Shown here in pieces: positions 27,896-44,348 of a DNA stretch of 64,000 bases (position 1 is the first letter of the stretch; the number at the start of each line of letters is the position of its first letter). The DNA comes from Escherichia coli (GTDB lineage: Bacteria > Pseudomonadota > Gammaproteobacteria > Enterobacterales > Enterobacteriaceae). The position numbers and the translations under genes were made by a program. The notes beneath the pieces were generated by a model. That model had not been told where the DNA came from, did not search any database, and saw nothing but the letters and a program-made list of their open reading frames with translations. The stretch is from assembly GCF_003334355.1 (NCBI RefSeq), contig NZ_QOWP01000010.1. The stretch is one strand, 5' to 3'.

Positions 27896-30076
27896 TTACT
27901 CTTTCTCGGAGTAACTATAACCGTAATAGTTATAGCCGTAACTGTAAGCGGTGCTGGCGCGTTTAATCACACCATTGAGGATAGCGCCTTTAATATTGAC
28001 GCCTGCCTGTTCCAGACGCTGCATTGACAAACTCACCTCTTTGGCGGTGTTCAAGCCAAAACGCGCAACCAGCAGGCTGGTGCCAACAGAACGCCCCACG
28101 ACCGCGGCATCACTCACCGCCAGCATCGGCGGCGTATCGACAATCACCAGATCGTAATGGTCGTTCGCCCATTCCAGTAATTGACGCATCCGATCGCGCA
28201 TCAGCAGTTCAGACGGGTTAGGTGGCACCTGACCGCGAGTAATCACATCAAAGCCTCCTTTGCCAAAATGCTGGATCACTTTGTTGAGCTCATCTTTACC
28301 TGCCAGATATTCCGACAAGCCATGTTCATTACTCACGGTAAACAGGTTATGCGAATAACCACGGCGTAAGTCGGCATCAATAAATAACACTTTTTGATCG
28401 GACTGGGCGATCACCGCTGCCAGAGTTGAACTGACAAACGTTTTACCACCGTCTGGCGTCGCACCGGTGATCATCAGAATGTTATTCTCCGTCTCCATCA
28501 TAGCGAAATGCAGACTGGTTCGTAGCGCACGTACGGCTTCCACAGCAGAATCCGCCGGGTTATCCGCCGCCAGGAAGGGGATATTTTTAGTACGATGGCG
28601 CTGCTGATTAGAAAATAAATTTTTCTTACGCAGACGGGTGCGTTTATCCAGCCACTCGGACATTGGGATAGTGGCATAAACGCTGATGCCGTGCTCTTCC
28701 AGTTGTTCCGGGGCTTCTACACCACGACGCAACATCGCACGCGCCAGCACGGCACCCACAGAAATAAACAGGCCAAGAATAAAACCAAGCACCACGTTCA
28801 ACGCTTTTTTCGGTTTCACTGGCTGCGGCTGAGTGACTGCCGGGTCGATAATCCGCACGTTACCAATGGCACTGGATTTCGAAATACTCAACTCCTGCTG
28901 GCGGTTAAGTAATTGCAGATATACCGCACGGCCCGCTTCTACGTCACGACTTAAACGCAACACTTCCTGTTGGGTGGAAGGCATTGCCGATACCCGCTTA
29001 TTCAGGCGTTTGCGTTCTTGCTCCAGCGTCTGGCGTTTTTCCAGCAGCGCACGATAAGTTGGGTGATCTTTCTTATACAGCTGGGAGATCTCTGCCTCGC
29101 GGAAGGTCAGCTCATTGAGTTGATTATCAACGTTCACAATCTGCTCAAGAACGGCTTTGGCTTCCAGGTTAAGGTCAACCGAATCGCGCTGCTGGCGATA
29201 AACGTTGAGTTTTTCTTCCGCTTGGTCCAGCTCGCTGCGCACTTCAGGTAACTGGCGCTGTAAGAATTCAAGGCTTTGTGAATCCTGCGCCGCCTGGCGA
29301 GCGATATTCTGTTGCAAATAGTTGTTAGCGATGCTGTTCAGAATACGAGTAATCAACTGGGGATCATCACCAGTCATGGTAAGTTCCAGCATCCCGCTTT
29401 CTTTACTGCGTTCGCTAACGGTAAAGGTTTCCTGCAATGCGTTAATCGCTTCCAGTTCGGTACGCTGGCTCAGGACAAACTGTGTTCCTGGTTTGGCCTT
29501 AATGTCCGCGATAGTCAGCGCAACGCCATCTTTTTCCAGACGCTGGCCGACCATACCATTGACGGTGAACTCTTCACCTTCCAGTGTATAGTGGCCGTTT
29601 TCCCCAACCGTGAGTGTCAGTTGCTGATCCTGACCATTCAGTTGTGGAATATGCATCCAGCTGATCGCCAGCTCACCTGGTTTTTCTTTGGTTAATCTCG
29701 CCCAGCCGCGACCCACAATCGGAAAATACTTCTGCTCAACTATGTCGCGCAGATTCAGTTCAGCAATGGTTTTACCGAGAATCATGCGCGATTGCAGCAG
29801 TTGGATCTCCGGTGCAGACTCGGGCGATGAGTTAGGGATCATATCGCTCAGGCCGCTGAGAATGGCGTTGCCCTGTTTTTGCTCAACCTGGACCAGAGTA
29901 TCTGCCTGATAAATTGGTGTGCTTAACAGCGAGTAAGCGACAGCGATCAGCGTGAATAACGCGGTCACGCTGATAATAAACTTACGGTGATCCCATAACT
30001 CGCCGACCAGACGAAGCAGATCGATCTCATTTTCCTGAGTGCTGCCTGGTGGCGTATTCATATTTTTAGTTGTCAT
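27896..30076 (-). CDS. etk: BY-kinase tyrosine autokinase Etk (726 aa), group 4 capsule/polysaccharide co-polymerase
   Basis: Full-length ORF; two transmembrane segments, Walker A/B ATPase domain and C-terminal tyrosine cluster YSYGYNYYGYSYSEKE. Confidence 0.94.
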   Translation of the reverse strand: MTTKNMNTPPGSTQENEIDLLRLVGELWDHRKFIISVTALFTLIAVAYSLLSTPIYQADTLVQVEQKQGNAILSGLSDMIPNSSPESAPEIQLLQSRMILGKTIAELNLRDIVEQKYFPIVGRGWARLTKEKPGELAISWMHIPQLNGQDQQLTLTVGENGHYTLEGEEFTVNGMVGQRLEKDGVALTIADIKAKPGTQFVLSQRTELEAINALQETFTVSERSKESGMLELTMTGDDPQLITRILNSIANNYLQQNIARQAAQDSQSLEFLQRQLPEVRSELDQAEEKLNVYRQQRDSVDLNLEAKAVLEQIVNVDNQLNELTFREAEISQLYKKDHPTYRALLEKRQTLEQERKRLNKRVSAMPSTQQEVLRLSRDVEAGRAVYLQLLNRQQELSISKSSAIGNVRIIDPAVTQPQPVKPKKALNVVLGFILGLFISVGAVLARAMLRRGVEAPEQLEEHGISVYATIPMSEWLDKRTRLRKKNLFSNQQRHRTKNIPFLAADNPADSAVEAVRALRTSLHFAMMETENNILMITGATPDGGKTFVSSTLAAVIAQSDQKVLFIDADLRRGYSHNLFTVSNEHGLSEYLAGKDELNKVIQHFGKGGFDVITRGQVPPNPSELLMRDRMRQLLEWANDHYDLVIVDTPPMLAVSDAAVVGRSVGTSLLVARFGLNTAKEVSLSMQRLEQAGVNIKGAILNGVIKRASTAYSYGYNYYGYSYSEKE

Positions 30077-30095
30077 CGTATTTTATAAACTCAAA

Positions 30096-30542
30096 TTACC
30101 GGCTGAGGCGCTTCGCCCATTCCTGACTGGCGCGCTCCAACATACCGTAGACATGTTCAAATGCGTCCTGACTTTTACGATAGGGATCCGGGATCTCTTT
30201 CTGTTCCAGCCATTGCCCAAACAGCATTGTCTTCCCGCGGACCTCGGGAGCAATTGCGGTAACCTGAGCAATATGTTCCGACTCCATTGCCAGAATCAGA
30301 TCGTAATTTCGTGCCATCTCAGCAGTGAGCTTACGTCCGGCATGTCCTTCAAGAGATACGCCATGATTAGCGGCAACATCTGCCGCTGTCGCATCTGCAG
30401 GGTGTTTTACCAGACCATGAACACCTGCCGATTTGACTTTTACGCCCGGCAGACGTTTACGCAGCAAGCGCTCGCCAATGGGCGAACGGCAAATGTTGCC
30501 GGTACAAACCACCAGGATTGAGTTAAATTTTAGTTGGGCCAT
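30096..30542 (-). CDS. etp: Low-molecular-weight protein-tyrosine phosphatase Etp (148 aa)
   Basis: Internal Met [27 protein letters not shown] (CX5R P-loop) of track ORF 30096..30554. Confidence 0.92.
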
Positions 30543-31669
30543 GTTTGAATCCACCGTGAAGTCTCTGTCAGGTCATGCACCCCGGAAATCGTCGGTACCA
30601 GCAGAGAAATCACACGGTTCCAACGAGCCAGCGGCGCGGTAGTGACATAAACAATGTCGTAAGGTTCAAGCTGGAATTCCGTTCCGAGTATCATTGCCGA
30701 TGCGTCCTTCGCATTCAGCTGATAAATATTGGCGATTTTGCCATTCTGCTTGTTTTGCGTTGCACGAATAACAAAAATCCCCGTCGCATCAGCGACATCC
30801 TGATTCATACCCTCAGCGTTACCCAGCGCTTCCGCCAGGGTCATACCGCTGCGGTCCATTTTCAGCGTGCTCTGTTTACCCACTTCACCCATCACGAAGA
30901 CTTTCAGATCATCGTTGCGCGGAATAAATAAAATATCGCCCGGGTGCAGCAGTTTGTTCTGGCGCAAGTCGCCACGCTGCATCAGCGCATAGAGGTTCAC
31001 TTTGGTCTTTACGCCATTCTGGGTGAGCACCACGTTGCGCCAGTCTGCATCTGCGGTCAGACCGCCCGCGGCGTTAATCGCATCCATGATGGTCAGAGGA
31101 ATATTGGTAATCGGCTGCTGACCCGATTTGCTGACTTCGCCGGTGACGTACGCTTTTTGCGATCGGAACGCCGCGACGCTGACATCGACTTGCGGGCTTT
31201 CAATGACTGAATCGAGACGCGCTGTAATCTCGTTGCGTACCTGGGTAAGTGTTTTCCCGGCCACTTTCAGGCGACCAATATAGGGGTAGAAAATCGCACC
31301 ATCGGCGTTAACCCAGTTGCCGGTATCACTGGCGCTACGGTATTGCCCTGCGGGGGTGGTTAGTTCCGGGTGATCCCAGACCGTAACCATCAACACATCA
31401 CCAATCCCGATACGATATTCATAGTTTGCGATTTGCTGCTCCAGCTCCGGGTTAGCCTGCGACATAATCGGTTTGGCGCGCAACTGATCAATCAATCCTG
31501 GCGTGACGGGATAGATATTGACCATTTTGTCCAGGTCATACTGATTGTCAGGTAGTTCAATGACATCCTTGTTACTGGTCGATAAATTCTGACCAGGAAC
31601 AAGGGTACATGCTGTCAAAGACAGAACAGCCAATGTCAGTACCGAAAACTTAAAAATGTTCTTTTTCAT
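30530..31669 (-). CDS. gfcE: Outer-membrane polysaccharide export lipoprotein GfcE (Wza paralogue, 379 aa)
   Basis: Internal Met [21 protein letters not shown] (lipobox) of track ORF 30530..31690; 3' end overlaps etp start by 13 bp. Confidence 0.92.
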
Positions 31670-31714
31670 TGGTTTATATTTATCAGTCAATGTAATGTTA
31701 TGAATTACGTCAGG

Positions 31715-33811
31715 TTATTGTCCAACCGGTACTTCTCGCTCTGCCGTCATTGGATAGAGCTGGTATTTGCGTGACAGCATTTGTCCACCATCACGCGTCA
31801 ATGGTGTCCACGAAACCACCGCGCGGTTGCGGTTAGGTCCAATGGTCATCAAGTCGAATGGAATCGAGATATAAAAACCTTTACTAAAGCCGCCTTCGCC
31901 GTAGTCATCTTTAGATACGTTACTGATTGCCGCCCATATCCCTACCGCCACGCCGCTGTCAAAGCGTTTGGCGACGTCGATCGTTGCGCCTTTATCTTTT
32001 GCCAGATATTGCCCAACGCTAAGTTTCATCAGTACGCCATTGAGCGTCGGCGGGTTCCAGTAAGCCGTCACGAAACCTGTTGGCGTGGAATAATCGGTGA
32101 AACGCATCATGTTGTCCCAGTCACGTTGCTTCACGTAGTTAACGTCCACACCCAGCGCCCAGCAGGCATCTAGCGGGCGATAAAGCAGCTCGGAACCGAC
32201 ACCGGCGTACATCGTTTCCAGATAACCGCCATACACCTGGCCATAGAAACCATTGCCTAAGTCAGCAAAATAGTTCGCCTGCAAGTTGTTGAGATAAACG
32301 TCATTGCGAACGTAGTCACGGATATGCGTGCGCACGCGGGGCAGGGTAGAGTCCGCGGGCAACAGCGAAGACTTAAACTTGTCGTAGTTGTTGTAAATAT
32401 TGGTGAAAATACCGCCATCAAGCAGCAGGTGGTCGGTAAACCAGTAGCGGGCACTGGACATCAGCCCCAGCTGGAACATATAGAAATCTTCCGGGCCGCC
32501 CAGCGACTGTGAAAGTGTTGGGTTGAAAGAGTAGCTAAAGCGATCTTCACGAATACGGTAGCCCCGACCAAAGGCAGAAAGATCTTCTGCTTCAACACGT
32601 TGTTGTTGAAGTTGCTCTGATTGACCAGGCGCTGTACCAGCCAGCTGTTTGCGCAGGCTGGCTACGTCGGTTTCGGTAGTCACCATCGCCATATGCTCGC
32701 GCTTTTGCGTCACGCTAATCTTCTCAACGCCTTGCGGCAGGTTATTCACCAGAATCCGGTTGGCACGATCGACCGCTTCGCGAGAATCACGGTATTTGTA
32801 TTGTTGACCAGACATATACAGCGTCTTATCGCGCAGCTGAATTTCCGGTGCTTCAAAACCTGCGTTGTACTTCAGCGCGGTAAGTTGGTTCGCTACTGTG
32901 GTGTACTGCAATCCTTCAGATTCAGGCGCAGGTTGATATGCCGGTTTTGGCGTATCGCGCAGGGCAGGGCGCAGATCGTTGAAATTGGTCCGTAACGTGA
33001 AGCCAAACATCAACGCGTTACCGCGTTCATAACTCAGGTTGAGATCTGCCCAGCTGGCAGCGCGATAAACTGCGCCGACGTTGAAATGGCTTGCCTGAGG
33101 CAGTTTGCCAGCGAAATCATTCTGGTAATTGTTGCCATCGTATTCGAGTTTCAGACGCAGGGGATTCCACGGCGTTTGATACTCAATGCCGCCAAAGATG
33201 GAAGCCGGGCCACGAAAGATATCGCTAAAGCTGATATCGCCCGCATCGTGAGACTCTGCGCGATGACAATATTTATCGCTCACCCGGCAAAACGGGTTGG
33301 TAATATTGCCCGCATTACCGGCGTAGCCCCATGCCATCCCGAGGGTGAAATCAAATGGCCCCGCTTGCTTGCTGGCCACCAGATACTCACCTTCAAACAG
33401 ACCCGTACCAGCAATATCACGTTTACCAAACGCCACTTGCGGTAGCCAGTAACCTTCTTCCCACAGGCGAAGTTTAAAATCGAATGATTTGTCTTTGTAT
33501 GACTGATCGCCGCTGAAATCTTCCCACTGGCTATATTTGCGTGTGCGCACATCCGTATAACGAATGGTGCCTTCCAGCCATGGGAACAGCGCCACGGAGG
33601 TGGAGTAGAACCGGTATTGATCGTTATCCCGGTAGTTGACGCTGAATTCACCTTCCGGTGCGATGCGCGCATTTGGCATCTGCAACAATCCTGTGCCGCC
33701 AAAGTCTGATTGCGACGAACCCAGCGGATCCGGGTAGGTTAATACTTCAGCATGACAGGCACTGGAGACGGCAATGGCCAGGCAGCTTAAAAGATAAGAA
33801 TTCTTCTTCAT
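31715..33811 (-). CDS. gfcD: Outer-membrane beta-barrel protein GfcD (698 aa)
   Basis: Full-length ORF with signal peptide and aromatic-rich C-terminus. Confidence 0.9.
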
Positions 33812-34557
33812 CAGTCAGGAACACGTTGCGTTAAAACAGACACAATCTGGTCATTTAAATCAGCATATTTTTCGGGCAGTACATGCGCAGAAAAGCCCAA
33901 CCAAAGCTGGCTGCCAGGCGGTGGTTCCACATGTCTTTTATTCCACAGGGCAACAGGGGCGACGACAGTCTCACCCTCAGGCGTAATCACCATAACGTTA
34001 TTCTTGTCCGCGCCTGCAAGGCGGGGGTGATCTTGCAGATAATCGGTAACGCTACGGCCTGCCTGCCAGGGCAATTGCCCGGCCCCAGAAACCGCACCCA
34101 GCAGAGTAATAGTCACCGGACGCTGTACGGTATAGAGCGTATAGTCCCCGACCAACGGGGGATTGCTGTTCTCATCCACTCGTACAAAATCAGGGTCCAG
34201 TTTGACCGGTAAGCGACCAGTGATATTGAGATTGAGTAACTGCTGGCGCACGGATTTAATCGTTGCCGCCACATCGTCGTCAGCTTCTGCTTCCCAGGAA
34301 GCAAGCTGTGCCATGACATGTTGGTAGTCTTTAAGCGCTTTAGCTTTCGCCGCAGAGTCGGTCAGCAAGGCACCAGGCCACCAGAGGCGATCGCGCAGTT
34401 GCGGTTGTGTCACCAACTGGACAACATTTTCCATGGGGCCAACGGAAAGTGTCTGTTGTTCGCCAGGCAGATAAATAGTCACCGTTCCTTGCGCAAAGGC
34501 ATGGGGTGTCATTACGTAAAGTACGCTGGCAATGAAATACGACTGTAATTTATTCAT
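33811..34557 (-). CDS. gfcC: Periplasmic protein GfcC (248 aa)
   Basis: Full-length ORF with signal peptide; 1-bp overlap with gfcD. Confidence 0.9.
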
Positions 34558-35198
34558 GGTGCGGGTTTAAGAAACGTCATTTCTACGGGAATAACCCCTG
34601 CGCCTAACATTTGCCGACTTTGACGAACCTGGCCAGTAGCCGAATCGACCCAGAATGTGTTTTGCCACTGTTTTTCTGGCCGCGTGGAAGTCACCTCTTC
34701 CTGCCAGACATTACACAGCACATTACGACCCGCAATATTCAGCGTCTCTAATCCAGCAAAGGAAAAAGTAGAACTCAGGGTCGCAGAGCGAAAATGGTTG
34801 TCTTCACTCCAGAGAATATCGCGCGTCCAGCGGCTGCCATCTTTTATTGCCAGCGCGTTACGCAGAGGGTCCTGCCCGGAATTTGTCACTTCCAGCAGAT
34901 TATTATTAAGTTTGACGGTTTTTAAAAGACGTCCATTGTGGGTAACCAGCATGGCGTTATCCTGGGATAACCATTTGCTTTGTTCTTGTTCTATATATCC
35001 CAGTACCACAAAGATTCGTTGCCCTTCATTAAGGCGTAAATACATAGTGGAATAAGGCAACGCCTGGATCTGCTGATCCGCTACGGTGATATCCTGATTA
35101 TCGAAAAGGCTGGCGCGAAATGTATCGACCATACTTTGCTGGCTGTGCGTACATCCCGCAAGAAATAGTGCGAAAATCGATAAAATAAGAGGGCGCAC
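34554..35198 (-). CDS. gfcB: Lipoprotein GfcB (214 aa)
   Basis: Full-length ORF with lipobox LAGC; ATGA overlap with gfcC. Confidence 0.9.
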   Translation of the reverse strand: MRPLILSIFALFLAGCTHSQQSMVDTFRASLFDNQDITVADQQIQALPYSTMYLRLNEGQRIFVVLGYIEQEQSKWLSQDNAMLVTHNGRLLKTVKLNNNLLEVTNSGQDPLRNALAIKDGSRWTRDILWSEDNHFRSATLSSTFSFAGLETLNIAGRNVLCNVWQEEVTSTRPEKQWQNTFWVDSATGQVRQSRQMLGAGVIPVEMTFLKPAP

Positions 35199-35304
35199 CT
35201 TTAATCCTTGAAAGGTTAATTAAAAAAATGCAAATCTCTAAAGCCCGGTACGAATATCGCAACCGGGTATCATTTAACTTTAATTTCGACGCGTTAAAGC
35301 AGTA

Positions 35305-35613
35305 TTAGCGTGTAGTGGACGTGGTGGTTGAGGTGTTATGAGAACCGCCATCGCCACTGTCATTTGCTGCAACAACTGCCAACGTCGCCACACCAACAGC
35401 CGTTGCCACACCGACAACTGTCGCCGTGCCGACAGCGCCAGCAGCCACGCCACCAGTGGTAGTAGCAGCAGTCGTGGTTGCGCCGGTAGTGGTCGTTGTG
35501 GTGCCAGTAGTACCCGTCGTTGCATCGGTCCCGTTTGTTGCTTCAGGGGCAGCAAACGCAGCTGGCGTCGTCAACATGAAGGCCATAAGGATTGCAGAAA
35601 GCTTGTGTTTCAT
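35305..35613 (-). CDS. gfcA: Thr/Ala/Gly-rich small secreted protein GfcA (101 aa)
   Basis: Internal Met MKHKLSAILMAFMLTTPAAFA of track ORF 35305..35631; low-complexity TTGTTGTTTTTTGATTTAATTTGG core. Confidence 0.88.
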   Translation of the reverse strand: MKHKLSAILMAFMLTTPAAFAAPEATNGTDATTGTTGTTTTTTGATTTAATTTGGVAAGAVGTATVVGVATAVGVATLAVVAANDSGDGGSHNTSTTTSTTR

Positions 35614-36054
35614 AACTTTTCCTTTATTCATCGCATGGACAATACGTACGCTTGAGATCAGGATTGTCTACTTTGAGTATAACATCCTTGTGAAATCTCC
35701 CTTTCCTCATACCGCTTGCACTATATACTGCGGGTAGGAAAGGCGCGCAGAGGGAAATATAAGATTGTTAACTATCCCCCTCTGGAAATACGACTTGTGA
35801 GCATAAGATAAATCTTAGCAAAATACGAATTAAAGATAAGGAAATTGTTACGAAAGCTATTAATTATTGTTGGTAATATAGTTTTAAGTGGTACTATAAC
35901 TGGCTGTTAAATGGCATTTATAACTATTAGGTGCAGAGATATTCGCTTAAATGGATTAGTTTCTTTGTGGAAAAGTAACTGATGTTATAATGTATGATGT
36001 TGACTATTGCACTATTCCAATAAAACCAGTCAGCTTTAAACAAGCAGCGTCATA

Positions 36055-36267
36055 TTAAGAGAGATAAACATTTGCCGCTGTTGGTCCTCGCAGGCCATTT
36101 ACGCGGCAAAATTCCACACGTAATCCTGGTATAAGCACTTCTGCGTCGCGGGGAGTGAATGCGGAAATATGGACCTGAACTTCTTTACGACCGTCGGAGG
36201 GGATAATGAATCCTTTGCCGCTTTTGCGATCAAAGGTTTTGACAATTCCTGTCATTTTACGGGACAA
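36055..36267 (-). CDS. cspH: CspA-family cold-shock-like protein CspH (70 aa)
   Basis: Full-length cold-shock domain [40 protein letters not shown]. Confidence 0.92.
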
Positions 36268-36552
36268 ACAAATTCCTTACTGAAAATACTGCGCTGCACT
36301 ATACGGGGTTAATAAAATAAAGCCAGCGATATTTAAGACCGCCGGACGGCTAAAATAAAATTTGCTTAATCTCAATTATCATGCGTTAATAGCTGCGTCG
36401 GTTTGAAAGACAGACAGCATACAAAGTAGTTTACTAAAGCAGTTCTCATTATCAGGCATTATCCCCTTCTTTTGAGTCTCTCTCCTGAACACTAAGTAGT
36501 TTCTGTATTAAAGCCCTGTTTGCCGAAAGGCCCAAAATGAAGGAAGTAAAAT

Positions 36553-36765
36553 ATGTCTAATAAAATGACTGGTTTAGTAAAATGGTTTAACGCAGATAAA
36601 GGTTTTGGCTTTATCACTCCTGATGATGGCAGCAAAGACGTTTTCGTCCATTTCACCGCCATCCAGAGCAATGAATTCCGCACGCTGAACGAAAATCAGA
36701 AAGTTGAATTTTCTATTGAGCAGGGGCAACGTGGCCCCGCGGCAGCGAACGTTGTTACGCTCTAA
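36553..36765 (+). CDS. cspG: Cold-shock protein CspG (70 aa)
   Basis: Full-length cold-shock domain [41 protein letters not shown] with RNP motifs. Confidence 0.95.
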
Positions 36766-36964
36766 GGTTGCCATTATTACTCAACATCTCCATTTCCGCT
36801 GTCCATGTTGTCATGGTTCACAGTACCGCACATCGGCATTCGATGTGACGGAGCGAAACCCTTTGGGCGCTAAGTGTATTTTTTGTAAATCGACGATGAT
36901 CACCTTTGATAACGTCGCGCTGCAAATACGCACTGACCATGCGCCGCTGGATTTCACAAAATAA
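36704..36964 (+). CDS. ymcF: Small Cys-rich ORF overlapping the cspG 3' end (ymcF-like); true start uncertain (no in-frame ATG; TTG at 36704/36752, GTG at 36731)
   Basis: Open frame 36704..36964 encoding ...[32 protein letters not shown]... (paired Cys motifs); position matches the small gene annotated between cspG and ymcE in E. coli. Confidence 0.45.
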
Positions 36965-37169
36965 TATCAGGCTCCCTCGTGGAGCCTTTTTTATATCTGC
37001 CTTATTTTTCTTCAACGCTGTATGTATAGTAAGCGATAACCTGTTGATTATTGAATCTTTCGGGGAGATGGCTTATAACATTTCTTACCTGACCAGGGTA
37101 CCGGGAACCAACACCTTACTGGCGTGTTGCTGTCTTTTAAGACCAGAAGAGGTTAACAGTGAATATTGA
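36939..37169 (+). CDS. ymcE: Small membrane protein YmcE/Sfa (76 aa)
   Basis: ATG at 36939 ([33 protein letters not shown]...); track ORF begins at an upstream TTG. Confidence 0.8.
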   Translation: MRRWISQNNIRLPRGAFFISALFFFNAVCIVSDNLLIIESFGEMAYNISYLTRVPGTNTLLACCCLLRPEEVNSEY

Positions 37170-37332
37170 AGAGTTAAAAAAACAAGCCGAAACGGAAATC
37201 GCCGACTTTATCGCGCAAAAAATCGCCGAGCTGAACAAGAATACAGGGAAAGAAGTCTCTGAAATTCGCTTCACCGCACGAGAAAAAATGACCGGGCTTG
37301 AAAGTTATGATGTCAAAATCAAAATAATGTGA
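37159..37332 (+). CDS. gnsA: GnsA (57 aa)
   Basis: GTG start at 37159 overlapping the ymcE 3' end; translation MNIEELKKQAETEIADFIAQKIAELNKNTGKEVSEIRFTAREKMTGLESYDVKIKIM; not in the ORF track (under 60 codons). Confidence 0.8.
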   Translation: MNIEELKKQAETEIADFIAQKIAELNKNTGKEVSEIRFTAREKMTGLESYDVKIKIM

Positions 37333-37338
37333 TTTTGT

Positions 37339-37366
37339 GAACATCACCCCGTGCGAGGTGATGTTC
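37339..37366. terminator. Hairpin between convergent gnsA and yccM (probable terminator)
   Basis: Inverted repeat gaacatcacc/ggtgatgttc; weak U-tract. Confidence 0.45.
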
Positions 37367-37380
37367 CGCTTGTTGCTAAT

Positions 37381-38454
37381 TTAGTGACCAATCATTGGCG
37401 CTTGTGGAATTAAGCGTCGGTACAATTCCTCCGGCACCGGGCTTTGCCATACTCCCGCATACATTGCGTAACCAATCACCGCGAACATAATCCCCAGAAC
37501 CAGTAGCGTCATTAACCAGCCAGACAACGCAAAAGCTTTTTTATTTGCCGCAGGTTTTTGCAGTGAAAAGGTCAATGTTGAAGCTACCGGACATGACTCT
37601 ACGCAAGTCATACAGCCGGTACATTCCACTGTTCGTACCTGAATTAATTTATCTACCGGGATCCGTGATGGGCAATTTTTTGCGCATTTGCCACAGCCGA
37701 TACAACTTTCGGCATTGCGACGAATCTTAAACGGCGATAATAGCGAAACCACGCCCATCAGCGCGCCATATGGGCAAAGATAACGACACCAGGCATGGCG
37801 AATAAACAGGCTGGCAATCAGCAAAACGGTCACGCTGATTAATGTCGCGGTCCCCATATAACGAAAGAAATCGAGCATTTTAACGTCCATCACCACGCTG
37901 TAGGGCGACAACATAAAATAGTGAATCGCCTGAGCGGGCATCAATAACGCGATATAGAGAAAAAAACTCAACAGCAAATACTTTACACCGCGCAGAGGAA
38001 TATCCAGCCAGCGGGGAAGGACACATTGCCGACCAAACAGTTTGTTACCGAGATCGCCGATTAATTCAGAAAGCGTACCAACCGGGCATAACCATGAGCA
38101 AAAGGCCTTTTTGAGTAATAGACTGATGACGATAAAAGCGACCAATAACAGCATCGCGGCGGCGTGGACGGACGGTAACTGACCTGTTGTAAGGCTATAT
38201 TTCAGATTCATCAGACCGGCAATCGGTAGCCAGCCTTCGATACCTCCCGGTCTGGCGACAAATGTCGTGCTACTTGCCGTTTCGTAATAGCGCACCCAAT
38301 ACCAGAACGTGATGGCAATATAAATATTCATTGCCAACAGTAATAATTGCGTCGCTTTACGCCAGGTCGTGGCATTGCGCCAGTCATTCCACGGTAATTT
38401 GCCGCCCGTCGTGCCTGGCCGCCGCTGCCAGCGGGTTCTTTTTTTCTCTGCCAT
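37381..38454 (-). CDS. yccM: Membrane-bound 4Fe-4S ferredoxin-type protein YccM (357 aa)
   Basis: Full-length ORF with transmembrane helices and CxxCxxC motifs (CIGCGKCAKNCP, CTGCMTCVESCP). Confidence 0.9.
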   Translation of the reverse strand: MAEKKRTRWQRRPGTTGGKLPWNDWRNATTWRKATQLLLLAMNIYIAITFWYWVRYYETASSTTFVARPGGIEGWLPIAGLMNLKYSLTTGQLPSVHAAAMLLLVAFIVISLLLKKAFCSWLCPVGTLSELIGDLGNKLFGRQCVLPRWLDIPLRGVKYLLLSFFLYIALLMPAQAIHYFMLSPYSVVMDVKMLDFFRYMGTATLISVTVLLIASLFIRHAWCRYLCPYGALMGVVSLLSPFKIRRNAESCIGCGKCAKNCPSRIPVDKLIQVRTVECTGCMTCVESCPVASTLTFSLQKPAANKKAFALSGWLMTLLVLGIMFAVIGYAMYAGVWQSPVPEELYRRLIPQAPMIGH

Positions 38455-38525
38455 GATTTTGCCAGTCCGTTAAGTTGCATACCAAATGCCACTATTCTAG
38501 TTGTTCTTAACTGGCTGATATTGAT

Positions 38526-41270
38526 TCAAATCGCGTTCAGGTCTTTCTTATTCAACCATGCTTCCAGATCGGCAACACTGCGTGTAATTTCTTCGTGTGG
38601 AAGGGGGGCAGATAATGGCTGCTGCTCCAGTTGTGCGCATAGCTGGCTGGCGATACGCATTCCCAAACTCGAGCAACTGCTTTTTAGCTGATGCGCGGCA
38701 CGCTTTATTTTCTCGCTATCCTGACTGGCGCGGGCAATGTCGATTTCATCGAGAAGCGGCAGGGCATGTTGTGTAAATAATACCAGCCATTCGTGGATCT
38801 TCTCCGTCCCCATTAACTGAGCATCTTCATTGAGTTGCGATACATCCAGCGATTGATCGTTATTGACTTGCAGTTGGAGATAGTGCGCCAGTAACTGACC
38901 GAGCACTTCACGCGGCACCGGTTTAGGGATAATCCCGCGGAATAATGAACTGGTACGCTGGCGCAGCGTTTCGTCAATGACATGGGCGCTAAAGCCAATC
39001 AAAACCAGCGACGGATATTGCTGTGCCAGTTGTCGGGCAAGCGTAATGCCGTCGACATCCGGCAGATCAAAATCCACCAGTGCGGCAGCAAACGGTTCGC
39101 TATTTTGCAGTGTCTCTAAAGCCTGCGCGGCATTGCCAACAGCAACAACCTGCGCACCACTGGTGTTCAGCATCTCAACGGTAATTCGCTGGGTTAGCGG
39201 GTTATCTTCAATTAACAGCAAACGTAAACCGTCAAGACGCACCGCCTGATTGACTGTTTTTGGCACGGGTGCCGTGGCAACACGTAACGGCAAGCGTAAA
39301 CAAAAACAGCTTCCAACCTCCGGCGTGCTGGTGGCGCTCAGTTCGCCGCCCATCGCCTGGGCCAGACGGCTACTGATAGTCAGCCCCAGCCCGGTGCCGC
39401 CGCGTTTGCCGCTTACCTGCACAAATGGCTGGAAGATTTCTGCCAGTTTCGCGGGATCAATACCGCAGCCGCTGTCTTCCACTTCGACCAGCCATTGCTC
39501 GCCATCAGTGCGACTACGCAGGATAATGTACCCTTCGTCAGTAAAACGCAGGGCGTTGCTCAACAGGTTGGTTATAACCTGACGAATACGTCGTGGATCG
39601 CCCATTAACGCGCACGGCATATCATCGGCAATTGCCGTTGCCAGGCGAATCGGGCGACCTTTCACCCGTCCGCTCATTAATTGCAGGGTACTTTCCAGCA
39701 GCGGGCGCGGTTCAAAGGGCTCATCGCTGACCGAAACATTCTTGCCACCTGCTTCGATAGCGGAATAATCGAGAATATCGTTGAGGATGGTCAGCAACGA
39801 TTCACCAGAGTCAGTAATTGCCCGCAAATCATCACGCTGGGCGTTAAGTGCGGGGTTATCTGCCAGCAGTTGAGCAGTGCCGAGAATACCGTACAGCGGT
39901 GTGCGGATCTCATGGCTCATCGCCGCCAGAAACGCCGATTTTGCCTGGCTGGCTTTTTCTGCTTCCGCCCGTGCCTGTCGGTGTTCTATCACCAGTTCCT
40001 GCAATTCAGCTGTACGCGCTTTGACCTGCGCCGCCAGCTGTTCGCGGTGGCGATTCAGTGCATGAACATTGCTGCGAAACGCATCCATCAGCCGCCCGAT
40101 GGTATCCAGCTCCCGTACGCCAGCGGTTTCCGGGAAAGGGGAGTCAATATCACCGTCCAGCAGCCGTTGCAGCGCCTGCGTTTGTTCGGCAAGTGGACGC
40201 GTGACTGAGCGATAAACCACGCGCCAGAGGATCAGAATCAGTGCGCAAAGTGAAACCATCCCCAGCAATAACAGGCTGTATTGCCCGCGTGCACTCGCTT
40301 TTTCCAGATGCGCCAGTCCGTGCTGATTACGCAGCTCAATGGTGTCGACCAGCTGACTGACTTCGCTACTAAACTGCGCGAACTGGGCGATGTTATTTTG
40401 TGCGAGAGTTTGTAGGTGATTGCTGATTTCACTGTCCTGCTGATACAGCGCCAGCAAATCGCTATATTGGCTAACGGTAGTTAACGTTGTTGCGACCTGC
40501 GCACGAACACCCGGATCTTCAATGCGTATTTGCCGACGTTGCAGAATTTTCACCGCATTATTGAGCTGCTTTTCCAGCGTTGGTGCATTTTTCTGGATCT
40601 GCTCCAGCCCCAGATTCATCACCATTTGCTGCACCCGCAGAGCGCTAAGGCGCAGTTCATTCATCTGGTTAACATACTCAAGATCGATATCAATCAGCCG
40701 ATCGAGTGCACTTTCAGCAGCCTGACGCTGATCTTGTTCGATCAAATCGTAAATCCCGGCCTGGGTCGCTCCAGCGGAAGTTGTCGCATTATTCGCCTGA
40801 CCTTGCGCCAGGCGTGCGATCTCATCGGCGGCAGCGACTATCTGCTGACTGAGTTGCTGTTGTTGCTGGCACAGTTGCAAACGCTGCCCCACCAGTTCCC
40901 CTTGCTGACGTAACGAACGGGAGATCTCCTGCTCCTGTTGTTCAATAGCGGTGGTATCAAAACCTTGTTCCCGTAACGCTTGCAGCAACGCATTAATCTT
41001 CAGGCTTTGTGCGGTGAGCATTCGCCCCTGCGCCTGCCACATCTTTTCGTTATCGGCACTGGTCAGGTTCTGCGCGGCGAAAAGTTCCCAGGCGCTGGCT
41101 TCGCTCAACTGGCGCGCCATATTCATGGTAGGAATCAATGCCTGAGTGTTGTCTTTTTCCACCTGGCTGATAAAGCGCAGGTTGTACCATCCCACCAGGG
41201 TACTGGTCAGGGTTAACAGCGCCATCAGGGCAAAGCCCATCCAGAGTCTTCGGGTCAGGGTTAAATTCAC
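38526..41270 (-). CDS. torS: TMAO-responsive hybrid sensor kinase TorS (914 aa)
   Basis: Full-length ORF with HisKA (MSHEIRTPL), ATPase, receiver and HPt domains. Confidence 0.95.
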
Positions 41271-41352
41271 GGTCGGTGCACTTTAGGTGAAAAAGGTTGA
41301 GTCGCAAAGCGGAATGCATCTAGCATAAAGCCTTATTATTGATGAGGCTATC

Positions 41353-42381
41353 ATGCGCGTACTGCTATTTTTACTTCTTTCCCTTTTCATGTTGCCGGCA
41401 TTTTCGGCTGATAACCTGTTGCGCTGGCATGATGCGCAGCATTTCACGGTGCAAGCCTCTACGCCGCTTAAAGCCAAACGCGCATGGAAACTGTGCGCGC
41501 TTTATCCCAGCCTGAAAGATTCATATTGGTTATCGTTGAACTATGGTATGCAGGAGGCTGCTCGCCGCTACGGTGTGGATTTAAAAGTGCTGGAGGCAGG
41601 CGGCTACAGCCAGTTGGCTACCCAGCAAGCACAAATCGACCAGTGTAAACAGTGGGGCGCAGAGGCCATTTTGCTCGGTAGTAGCACGACCTCATTTCCC
41701 GACCTGCAAAAGCAGGTAGCAAGTCTGCCGGTGATCGAACTGGTAAATGCTATTGATGCTCCCCAGGTGAAAAGCCGCGTTGGTGTGCCCTGGTTTCAGA
41801 TGGGCTATCAACCGGGGCGATATCTGGTGCAATGGGCGCACGGTAAACCACTGAATGTGCTGTTGATGCCCGGACCCGATAACGCCGGGGGCAGTAAGGA
41901 GATGGTCGAGGGTTTTCGCGCAGCCATTGCCGGAAGCCCGGTGCGTATTGTTGATATTGCGCTTGGTGATAACGATATTGAAATCCAGCGTAACCTGTTG
42001 CAGGAGATGCTGGAACGCCATCCAGAAATCGACGTCGTTGCCGGAACGGCCATTGCGGCAGAGGCGGCAATGGGGGAAGGGCGTAACCTGAAAACGCCGC
42101 TTACCGTGGTGTCGTTTTATCTTTCACATCAGGTGTATCGCGGGCTGAAGCGGGGAAGAGTGATTATGGCTGCCAGCGATCAAATGGTCTGGCAGGGGGA
42201 ACTGGCAGTTGAGCAGGCCATCAGGCAATTACAGGGGCAATCGGTGTCTGATAATGTCAGCCCACCGATTTTAGTTCTGACGCCGAAAAATGCCGACCGA
42301 GAACATATCCGCCGCTCGCTGTCACCGGGGGGATTTCGTCCGGTCTATTTTTATCAGCACACATCAGCGGCTAAGAAATAA
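41353..42381 (+). CDS. torT: Periplasmic TMAO-binding protein TorT (342 aa)
   Basis: Full-length ORF with signal peptide; periplasmic-binding-protein fold. Confidence 0.93.
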   Translation: MRVLLFLLLSLFMLPAFSADNLLRWHDAQHFTVQASTPLKAKRAWKLCALYPSLKDSYWLSLNYGMQEAARRYGVDLKVLEAGGYSQLATQQAQIDQCKQWGAEAILLGSSTTSFPDLQKQVASLPVIELVNAIDAPQVKSRVGVPWFQMGYQPGRYLVQWAHGKPLNVLLMPGPDNAGGSKEMVEGFRAAIAGSPVRIVDIALGDNDIEIQRNLLQEMLERHPEIDVVAGTAIAAEAAMGEGRNLKTPLTVVSFYLSHQVYRGLKRGRVIMAASDQMVWQGELAVEQAIRQLQGQSVSDNVSPPILVLTPKNADREHIRRSLSPGGFRPVYFYQHTSAAKK

Positions 42382-43046
42382 CCTTCACCATGTTGCGTCA
42401 CCAGTAAATCCGCGCTGAGTTTATGACGTAAACGACGAATTAACACATCGACGGTGCGCAGGTCAGGGTTTTCCACCCGACGCGCAGAAAGCATACGTAG
42501 CAGACGTTCACGGCTGAGAATTTCGCCCGGATTCGTCACAAATGCCACCAACATTTCATACTCTGCGCGGGTCAGTTTAATCGGCTCGCCATCCCGCTCC
42601 AGCGTATGGCGCGACACATTCAGGCAATAACCGGCAAAGCGATAGCAGTTGTCCTGAGTGTGCGGTTGAGCTTGTCGCGCGAGGTCGATTCGCCAGAGCA
42701 GATTTTTCACCCGTACTACCAGTTCGCGCAGTTCCAGCGGTTTGGTGACGTAATCGTCTGCGCCCATTTCCAGCCCAACAATACGGTCAATCCGATCGCT
42801 GCGTCCGGTAACCAGAATAATCCCCACCGTTGAGCGTTCTCGCAGGGCGCGGGTTAACATCAGGCCATTTTCATCGGGTAAGTTGATATCCAGCAGAATT
42901 AAATCTACCGGCTGATTCTGCATAATTTCCCGCAGCCCGGCACCGCTCGCTGTAACGGAAACGGTATACCCCTCCTGAGTGAAGTAAGATTGTAATCGCG
43001 CCTGGGTAACCGGCTCATCTTCAACAATAACAATGTGATGTGGCAT
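42354..43046 (-). CDS. torR: OmpR-family response regulator TorR (230 aa)
   Basis: Full-length ORF MPHHIVIVEDEPVTQARLQSYF...; 3' end overlaps convergent torT by 28 bp. Confidence 0.95.
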   Translation of the reverse strand: MPHHIVIVEDEPVTQARLQSYFTQEGYTVSVTASGAGLREIMQNQPVDLILLDINLPDENGLMLTRALRERSTVGIILVTGRSDRIDRIVGLEMGADDYVTKPLELRELVVRVKNLLWRIDLARQAQPHTQDNCYRFAGYCLNVSRHTLERDGEPIKLTRAEYEMLVAFVTNPGEILSRERLLRMLSARRVENPDLRTVDVLIRRLRHKLSADLLVTQHGEGYFLAADVC

Positions 43047-43064
43047 CAGAGGGTTTTACTCATT

Positions 43065-43127
43065 CTGTTCATATCTGTTCATATTCTGCCGTAAGCCGTT
43101 CATCCTGACCAGTGCCGCTGTTCATAT
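43065..43127. promoter_or_regulatory. tor boxes: four direct decameric TorR-binding repeats in the torR-torC divergent promoter region
   Basis: ctgttcatat at 43065-43074 and 43075-43084, ccgttcatcc at 43096-43105, ctgttcatat at 43118-43127. Confidence 0.85.
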
Positions 43128-43175
43128 TTGCTCATTAAGATCGCTTCACTAAACCATAATTTTACAGGGGCTATT

Positions 43176-44348
43176 ATGCGGAAACTCTGGAACGCGCTAC
43201 GCCGACCCAGTGCTCGTTGGTCGGTACTGGCGCTGGTCGCAATTGGGATTGTGATTGGCATTGCGCTGATTGTATTGCCACACGTTGGGATCAAAGTCAC
43301 CAGCACAACCGAATTTTGTGTCAGTTGCCACAGTATGCAACCGGTGTATGAAGAATATAAACAGTCGGTGCATTTCCAGAACGCCTCCGGCGTGCGAGCT
43401 GAATGCCATGACTGTCATATCCCGCCGGATATTCCAGGCATGGTGAAGCGCAAACTGGAAGCGAGCAATGATATCTACCAGACCTTTATTGCTCACTCCA
43501 TTGATACACCTGAAAAATTCGAAGCCAAACGCGCGGAACTTGCCGAGCGTGAATGGGCGCGAATGAAAGAAAACAACTCGGCAACCTGCCGCTCCTGCCA
43601 TAACTACGATGCGATGGATCATGCGAAGCAGCATCCTGAAGCGGCACGTCAGATGAAGGTGGCAGCGAAAGATAATCAATCCTGCATCGACTGTCATAAA
43701 GGTATTGCCCACCAGTTACCGGATATGAGTAGCGGCTTCCGTAAGCAGTTCGATGAGCTTCGCGCCAGTGCTAATGACAGTGGTGACACGCTGTACTCTA
43801 TTGATATTAAGCCAATTTATGCGGCGAAAGGCGATAAAGAAGCCTCTGGTTCTCTGCTGCCTGCTTCGGAAGTGAAAGTCCTTAAACGTGACGGCGACTG
43901 GCTGCAAATTGAAATTACCGGCTGGACGGAAAGCGCCGGACGTCAGCGTGTACTCACCCAATTCCCAGGTAAACGCATCTTTGTTGCCTCGATTCGTGGT
44001 GATGTGCAGCAGCAGGTGAAAACGCTGGAGAAAACCACCGTTGCCGACACCAATACCGAGTGGAGCAAGTTGCAGGCCACCGCATGGATGAAGAAAGGCG
44101 ACATGGTGAACGATATCAAACCGATCTGGGCCTATGCGGATTCGTTGTACAACGGCACCTGTAACCAGTGCCACGGCGCACCGGAAATCGCCCACTTTGA
44201 CGCTAACGGTTGGATCGGCACGCTCAACGGCATGATTGGCTTTACCAGTCTCGATAAACGTGAAGAACGCACTTTGTTGAAATATCTGCAAATGAATGCG
44301 TCTGACACCGCAGGTAAGGCTCACGGCGATAAGAAGGAAGAAAAATAA
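43176..44348 (+). CDS. torC: Pentahaem c-type cytochrome TorC (390 aa)
   Basis: ATG at 43176 (MRKLWNALRRPSARWSVLALVAIG...); five CxxCH haem motifs; track ORF begins 16 codons earlier. Confidence 0.94.
   Translation: MRKLWNALRRPSARWSVLALVAIGIVIGIALIVLPHVGIKVTSTTEFCVSCHSMQPVYEEYKQSVHFQNASGVRAECHDCHIPPDIPGMVKRKLEASNDIYQTFIAHSIDTPEKFEAKRAELAEREWARMKENNSATCRSCHNYDAMDHAKQHPEAARQMKVAAKDNQSCIDCHKGIAHQLPDMSSGFRKQFDELRASANDSGDTLYSIDIKPIYAAKGDKEASGSLLPASEVKVLKRDGDWLQIEITGWTESAGRQRVLTQFPGKRIFVASIRGDVQQQVKTLEKTTVADTNTEWSKLQATAWMKKGDMVNDIKPIWAYADSLYNGTCNQCHGAPEIAHFDANGWIGTLNGMIGFTSLDKREERTLLKYLQMNASDTAGKAHGDKKEEK

Follow-up and report, generated by a model that had tools for sequence, protein, structure and literature searches.

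The gfcA locus and the architecture of its product

The current study concerns a small gene within a 64,000-nt stretch of Escherichia coli DNA (hereafter, the window). According to the open reading frame (ORF) list and its translation, positions 35305..35613 of the minus strand encode 102 residues plus a stop codon (MKHKLSAILMAFMLTTPAAFAAPEATNGTDATTGTTGTTTTTTGATTTAATTTGGVAAGAVGTATVVGVATAVGVATLAVVAANDSGDGGSHNTSTTTSTTR, running MKHKLS...TSTTR). The original prediction had named this gene gfcA, a name borne out by the ORF itself, by synteny and by protein identity. Over the 16 kb surrounding the gene, the window shares 99.92% identity with E. coli strain MLI023K1, in which the RefSeq order is etk, etp, gfcE, gfcD, gfcC, gfcB, gfcA, cspH, cspG, and the ORFs of the window match it. 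Based upon this synteny and the RefSeq gene order, the gene can be assigned on sequence grounds as gfcA (ymcD), which stands first in the group 4 capsule operon gfcABCDE-etp-etk. The minus-strand ORFs run gfcA, gfcB, gfcC, with ORFs of 214 aa and 248 aa downstream on the same strand; gfcB, the next operon gene, occupies 34554..35198 (minus strand; ORF list and the RefSeq annotation of the syntenic MLI023K1 region), while the ORF list places a 70-aa cold-shock-type ORF upstream, the neighbors of gfcA being gfcB, gfcC, and cspH. K-12 has an IS1 between gfcA and cspH, whereas the window has none there. In protein alignments, the encoded GfcA is 99% identical to WP_001295358.1 (K-12 type) and 97% identical to WP_001299283.1 (EDL933 type), and this near-identity extends along the full length. 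The usual gfcA allele has 101 aa (306 nt), compared to 102 aa (309 nt) for that of the window. The RefSeq product name is “threonine-rich inner membrane protein GfcA.”

A longer minus-strand ORF (35305..35631) contains the annotated gfcA start at 35613. A Shine-Dalgarno sequence read from the DNA, AAGGA (35620..35624, minus strand), precedes the ATG at 35613 by 6 nt and favors the RefSeq start over the upstream ATG at 35631. Within the gfcA-gfcB intergenic region (35199-35304), the folding energy of a CCCGGT...ACCGGG hairpin following the gfcA stop codon was not better than that of shuffled sequences (z = -0.88). We found no consensus promoter or terminator. It is also evident that the GfcA family is barely detectable by sequence. 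Pfam and NCBIfam scans of GfcA yielded no significant family, as the sole Pfam match was a non-significant one to DUF4781, and the profile of the YjbE family (which we take to be PF11106) was not matched. When the GfcA proteins of the window, K-12, and EDL933 were looked up by exact sequence with either start, a collection of 15 billion proteins returned 0 matches. Most of what a homologous-protein search recovered was frameshifted or truncated, accompanied by a few alleles from E. albertii, with the main E. coli cluster being absent, and an exhaustive HMMER search recovered 14 GfcA-family representatives among 1.84 billion proteins.

Four parts can be distinguished along the protein. Residues 1-21 (35551..35613, minus strand; MKHKLSAILMAFMLTTPAAFA followed by AP) constitute a predicted Sec signal peptide with the typical n-h-c pattern and an AxA motif, and this pattern is kept in all of the orthologs aligned as well as in YjbE. 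GfcA is thus inferred to be a small exported protein whose signal peptide would be cleaved. Judging from composition and run lengths, residues 22-55 (35449..35550, minus strand) form a hydrophilic linker rich in Thr, Gly, and Ala. Residues 56-83 (35365..35448, minus strand) form a hydrophobic Gly/Ala/Val/Thr/Leu segment, which is predicted to be a membrane-spanning helix; its Kyte-Doolittle 19-residue mean peaks at 2.16 over residues 65-83, and an AlphaFold2 model of GfcA places a helix at residues 60-84, with pLDDT below 50 in a model of low overall confidence (mean pLDDT 44.7). A conserved C-terminal tail, NDSGDGGSHNTSTTTSTTR (35308..35364, minus strand), was recognized from an alignment of the orthologs and YjbE. 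The tail reads NDSGDGG...TTTSTTR; the D of its GDG core and a portion of the terminal Thr run do not vary among the aligned orthologs and YjbE, while the rest is similar, but non-identical.

The original prediction described a tract of roughly 50 residues consisting solely of Thr, Gly, and Ala. This is considerably longer than what is present, as the strict T/G/A-only run spans 25 residues (31-55; 35449-35523), after which the hydrophobic segment begins. The run extends to 47 residues if Val is allowed and to 53 if both Val and Leu are allowed; the peptide TTGTTGTTTTTTGATTTAATTTGG corresponds exactly to residues 32-55. The “tract” therefore consists of two low-complexity modules side by side, the first a hydrophilic Thr/Gly/Ala linker and the second a Gly/Ala/Val hydrophobic segment. 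GfcA contains 30 Thr among its 102 residues, and the T/G/A run comes after the predicted signal peptide. Thr, Gly, and Ala make up about a fifth of an average protein, yet here they fill 25 consecutive positions, a composition that by this back-of-the-envelope estimate is far beyond chance.

At the DNA level, the GC-rich acc/ggt/gcc-type codons that had been described are readily apparent, with a GC content of 0.58-0.65 over 35340-35579 versus 0.36-0.50 in the flanks. The quasi-repeat attributed to them exists as well, albeit in a weak form. Tandem Repeats Finder reported an imperfect 21-nt tandem repeat present in two copies with 80% matches (35471..35511, minus strand; score 54), and a repeat search found three 18-nt units that are 72–83% identical (35383..35436, minus strand) and encode AVGTAT, VVGVAT, and AVGVAT. 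The longest exact codon repeats in the tract are pairs, and Tandem Repeats Finder detected no perfect short-unit array. This weak DNA repetition is due to the mixing of synonymous codons.

Length of the tract among strains

To place the window allele among other strains, the gfcA region was compared in complete genomes and metagenomes. A 651-nt query from the window matched 3,674 of 5,426 complete E. coli genomes. In a first evenly spaced sample, all 57 full-length rows had the standard span, which is 3 bases shorter than that of the window; these spans were counted after allowing for IS1 in the K-12 rows and for an upstream 34-bp duplication in strain ET82. A second evenly spaced sample, for which the K-12 allele served as the query, gave the standard span in 58 of 58 full-length rows. 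Consequently, none of the ~115 systematically sampled complete genomes had a length differing from 101 aa. Metagenomes were scanned using a pattern of exact anchors separated by a variable gap (-15 to +15 nt), and 52 of 55 contigs had the standard gfcA span. Among the others, a contig at 33x coverage lacks 15 nt between two ACCAC repeats, a clean deletion that removes GATTT and is the single credible -15 nt allele among the 55; a contig at 1.6x coverage has a junk-like +6; and a contig at 3x coverage has a -1 frameshift, the sole -1 variant.

To detect rarer alleles, we employed 131 junction probes, built on three common haplotypes, for 3- to 21-nt deletions and duplications that were either single-codon events or flanked by microhomology. 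The probes were designed so that standard alleles cannot seed megablast, and a pilot with a natural control haplotype indicated that short probes inside the tract work. Matches were obtained in 37 genomes, of which eight are true length variants, relative to ~3,590 genomes with a near-full-length gfcA. From the fetched sequences, a -15 nt allele is present in CAVP773 and OY754834. A +21 nt allele in RMDEC465 has TTGTTTT duplicated between ACTACTGG repeats; its haplotype contains an 8-nt direct repeat at 21-nt spacing and the duplication falls within the 35471-35511 repeat region. A -18 nt allele in ABW_A19 has lost one hexapeptide unit, leaving 2, and a +18 nt allele in strain 1409 and three others has a fourth. 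In residues, these natural changes amount to -5, +7, -6, and +6, and all of the length variants found in complete genomes are in frame (8/8). Carriers of the tested events thus represent ~0.2% of gfcA-bearing genomes, which is a lower bound, as the probes covered predefined indels on three haplotypes. The remaining matches were to alleles of standard length: L068, L073, and L082 were seeded by unanticipated SNP haplotypes, while strain 214-4 exhibits a same-length unit conversion. In 214-4, a copy of the first hexapeptide unit stands in place of the second (GTATVV twice), accompanied by the substitutions T47K and A49V, a pattern that could reflect either gene conversion between units or an assembly artifact.

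Several structural features of the region were encountered as well. About 1,750 of the 5,426 complete genomes yielded no gfcA match by megablast with 35150-35800; nearly all complete genomes do match elsewhere within 28000-44000. Strain A65EC matches over 73% of the query with the record in two places, which suggests an insertion or rearrangement inside gfcA. In ET82, the 34-bp duplication is a tandem one located upstream of gfcA at about window position 35690-35724, and the coding sequence is standard.

The expectation that tract length may differ between strains was correct, given the extra codon of the window and the alleles of -5, +7, -6, and +6 aa. The proposed comparison of alleles across E. 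coli accordingly did reveal tract-length polymorphism, but of a rare kind, with the systematic samples being constant. The original prediction had also considered the tract to be a likely hotspot for slippage, and a stronger version of this idea would make gfcA a contingency locus, at which frequent length change tunes or switches the capsule. Consistent with such a possibility, length alleles do exist (+3 in the window, -15, +21, -18, and +18 nt), microhomology or entire repeat units mark their junctions, and the window allele is private to its source strain. Conversely, there is no perfect short-unit repeat, 0 of the ~115 sampled genomes vary in length, and 131 probed events yielded only eight carriers among ~3,590 genomes. 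Since the variants in complete genomes are all in frame, none of them turns the gene off, and the +18 allele, which is common to four strains of different sources, appears to have been inherited and not to have arisen repeatedly. On/off variation of the operon goes with upstream IS insertions instead. We consider the contingency scenario highly improbable and the hotspot to be largely refuted as a high-frequency mechanism, although indels could still arise in the gfcA tract several times more often than in an average gene.

The upstream insertions occur in unrelated strains (IS1D in K-12, IS1A in RM9513, IS1D in ABW_A19, IS1 in H9Ecoli, and IS5 in CAVP773) within a region roughly equivalent to window positions 35614-35800. 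Two of the length alleles, -18 in ABW_A19 and -15 in CAVP773, are located behind such insertions and may therefore reside in silenced operons. If so, they would be poor guides to what a functional GfcA can tolerate.

The window allele itself is distinguished by two changes in gfcA, both recognized from alignments: a 3-nt insertion (35464..35466, minus strand) that duplicates a GCT codon for Ala within a CTGCT context and converts TTTATTT to TTTAATTT, where the EDL933-type protein has TTTAATT, and a GAG to GAT SNP (35524..35524, minus strand) resulting in E30D. Neither the +GCT junction probe nor a 41-nt probe for E30D had a match among the 5,426 complete genomes, the window-length span of 209 nt was absent from the 55 metagenome contigs, and no complete genome exceeded 99.4% identity to the 651-nt query. 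Over 16 kb, the window differs from the nearest complete genome at 11 sites, four of which (+GCT, E30D, and SNPs at 35827 and 35885) are clustered within 420 bp (35464-35885). The 35885T is common to the window and H9Ecoli, one of ~30 genomes differing from the window at a single position in the gfcA region, whereas 35827G together with 35885T is found in no complete genome. There are 3 private changes within 364 bp versus 7–8 differences from the nearest genome in the other 15.6 kb.

This clustering could be explained by selection acting locally, by recombination over a small patch, or by an assembly error. The last scenario, in which the extra codon and the private changes near it stem from misassembly or sequencing errors within low-complexity DNA, would account for their absence from 5,426 complete genomes and 55 metagenome contigs as well as for the clustering, and the low-coverage metagenome contigs L017 and L049 do show junk in the gfcA tract. 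Despite this, the insertion cleanly duplicates a single codon, in frame, at a CTGCT microrepeat and the SNP is a conservative E-to-D change, whereas errors would break the frame more often; the remainder of the 16 kb also resembles normal strain divergence. An error is thus rather unlikely. The window allele (+Ala, E30D) is new with respect to the 5,426 complete genomes, but it is a trivial variant of a known gene.

Overlapping reading frames and selection on the protein

The spurious opposite-strand ORFs ascribed to the tract are both present on the plus strand, encoding 105 aa (35338..35655) and 103 aa (35426..35737), and the ORF list additionally contains a same-strand ORF of 91 aa in an alternative frame (35280..35555, minus strand). 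Four of the six frames are free of stop codons across gfcA nt 64-246, as is predicted for a sequence composed of ACN, GGN, GCN, and GTN codons, which makes the opposite-strand ORFs by-products of codon composition. The database proteins P0008-P0012 and P0028 end in the sequence of the 35280..35555 frame and are frameshifted GfcA entries. With up to four reading frames open across gfcA, annotators should be wary of this region.

Selection was examined using 12 diverse gfcA alleles from complete genomes, each 306 nt in length. Their products fall mainly into two proteins, the K-12 type and the EDL933 type, distinguished by T26A and T50A. The Thr tract contains 12 synonymous and 2 non-synonymous segregating sites among these alleles, while the hydrophobic segment contains 6 and 1, respectively. 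Both modules are under purifying selection on the protein, and the combined ratio of 18 synonymous to 3 non-synonymous polymorphisms in the gfcA frame argues against the tract being neutral filler. Four of the other five frames have just 0–2 synonymous polymorphisms, and one antisense frame over gfcA has a ratio of 15:6. A synonymous bias confined mainly to the gfcA frame argues against a coding function for the others.

Based upon these observations, the explanation that we favor, at a probability of about 80%, is that GfcA is a two-module protein held by selection, for which length change is both rare and in frame. Selection keeps the amino acids of the tract while its codons drift at synonymous third positions. 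Such drift restricts exact DNA repeats to a few bases, and length change is accordingly rare. When it does arise, it does so through slipped-strand mispairing or unequal recombination at direct repeats of 5–8 nt or between the 18-nt units, a mechanism supported by the junction sequences. The GCT duplication of the window (+1 Ala) is one such rare event. Counting against this explanation is the low confidence of the AlphaFold2 model (mean pLDDT 44.7). As for the linker, the best reading is that its composition and length are held by selection within E. coli, but are free to change over longer times.

Some of this was already available, as the gene, its Thr richness, and the glycan-carrier idea discussed below are all present in the literature or in RefSeq names. 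What is added here are the two distinct modules, the clear purifying selection, and the near-invariant length over thousands of genomes, together with natural in-frame alleles that alter the linker by -5, +1, or +7 residues or provide 2, 3, or 4 hexapeptide units. The practical consequence of the tract finding is little, whereas the natural length alleles provide existing reagents with which to probe the function of GfcA.

Possible roles of GfcA and comparison with known systems

Small proteins whose parts follow this order are encoded upstream of gfcB homologs in Escherichia sp. MOD1-EC7003, E. albertii, Cedecea colo, and a Citrobacter species, and the same order is found in the paralog YjbE, which is encoded upstream of yjbF in E. 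coli. A scan of genome contigs with GfcB identified five loci. The common order consists of a signal peptide ending AxA-AP, a low-complexity linker of small residues, a hydrophobic Gly/Ala/Val stretch, a GDG-type motif, and a terminal Thr run. Linker length varies from 33–34 residues in E. coli to 27–28 in E. albertii and 16 in Cedecea, and the linkers of YjbE and Citrobacter are Ser/Ala-rich. We infer that the likeliest role of the tract would be that of a flexible periplasmic spacer, for which composition would count for more than exact sequence across species. The hydrophobic segment is most likely a membrane anchor, as predicted from its sequence, although a tolerance of 22, 28, or 34 residues would be odd for a strict transmembrane helix.

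In enteropathogenic E. coli (EPEC) E2348/69, an in-frame gfcA deletion results in loss of the group 4 capsule, for which GfcA is required, and an altered O-antigen chain-length distribution, both of which are restored by gfcA alone in trans (PMC3853201). Larson et al. describe GfcA as 30% Thr and speculate about its modification with O-antigen and direction to GfcD (PMC8592465), while Fruet et al. refer to GfcA as entirely uncharacterized (PMC11494523). In a preprint, gfcA and etk are reported to be targets of mutation as E. coli evolves in IL10-knockout mice with an inflamed gut (bioRxiv 10.64898/2026.05.27.728231).

One could envision from these reports that GfcA is a glycan carrier, with its Thr tract O-linked to the O-antigen polymer and the protein exported through GfcD to serve as the capsule anchor. 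This scenario would make use of a hydrophilic exported tract in a protein of ~30% Thr and would supply an anchor for the capsule. It would also fit the shift in O-antigen chain-length distribution upon gfcA loss (PMC3853201), the speculation raised by Larson et al. (PMC8592465), and the C-terminal Thr run that is kept in the orthologs and YjbE. Several observations are difficult to reconcile with it: 1) the literature examined contains no experimental support, GfcA being “entirely uncharacterized” per Fruet et al., 2) the operon as annotated encodes no protein glycosyltransferase or oligosaccharyltransferase, and 3) the N-terminal tract is 16 residues with few Thr in Cedecea and Ser/Ala-rich in YjbE. 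A Thr tract of this specific kind is therefore not maintained in the family as a whole. The O-glycosylation-like mucin character suggested in the original prediction exists as a published speculation (PMC8592465) and found no support in the present analysis. Overall, a glycan carrier appears improbable. A further extension would have the GfcA linker serve as the covalent O-antigen site in a small proteoglycan-like anchor passed to GfcD, such that the length alleles and the private changes of the window (+Ala, E30D, 35827) would reflect selection on capsule anchoring. This would echo the gfcA and etk mutations reported in the inflamed-gut preprint, but we regard it as a distinct long shot. A selection-held spacer remains our preferred view of the tract.

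When compared to known systems, gfcA resembles simple-sequence contingency loci in having a repetitive coding composition and rare length change at direct repeats. The similarities end there, as contingency loci contain a perfect array of short units (1–7 nt), whereas gfcA has only a 21-nt unit in two copies at 80%. Furthermore, closely related strains often differ in length at contingency loci, with frame-shifting changes among the differences, whereas those of gfcA are in frame and occur in ~0.2% of genomes. Contingency loci switch genes on and off, and no such switching is seen for gfcA among the complete-genome variants. Likewise, GfcA shares with mucin-like O-glycosylated linkers a high Thr content in an exported, Ser/Thr-rich, and probably extended segment. 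Unlike these linkers, the GfcA run lacks Pro and its Thr part lacks a tandem peptide repeat. Nor is a dedicated transferase annotated in the gfc operon.

The parallels to YjbE (WP_000757333.1, “exopolysaccharide production protein YjbE”) are of a different nature. A BLASTP comparison of GfcA and YjbE yielded no alignment, and the 80-aa YjbE has a Ser/Ala-rich linker, in contrast to the Thr-rich linker of GfcA, and a far shorter hydrophobic segment. The resemblance is thus one of architecture and operon position only. In these respects, YjbE is the first gene product of yjbEFGH, much as gfcA is positioned in its own operon, and genes of the YjbF/GfcB, GfcC, and YjbH/GfcD families follow yjbE just as they follow gfcA.
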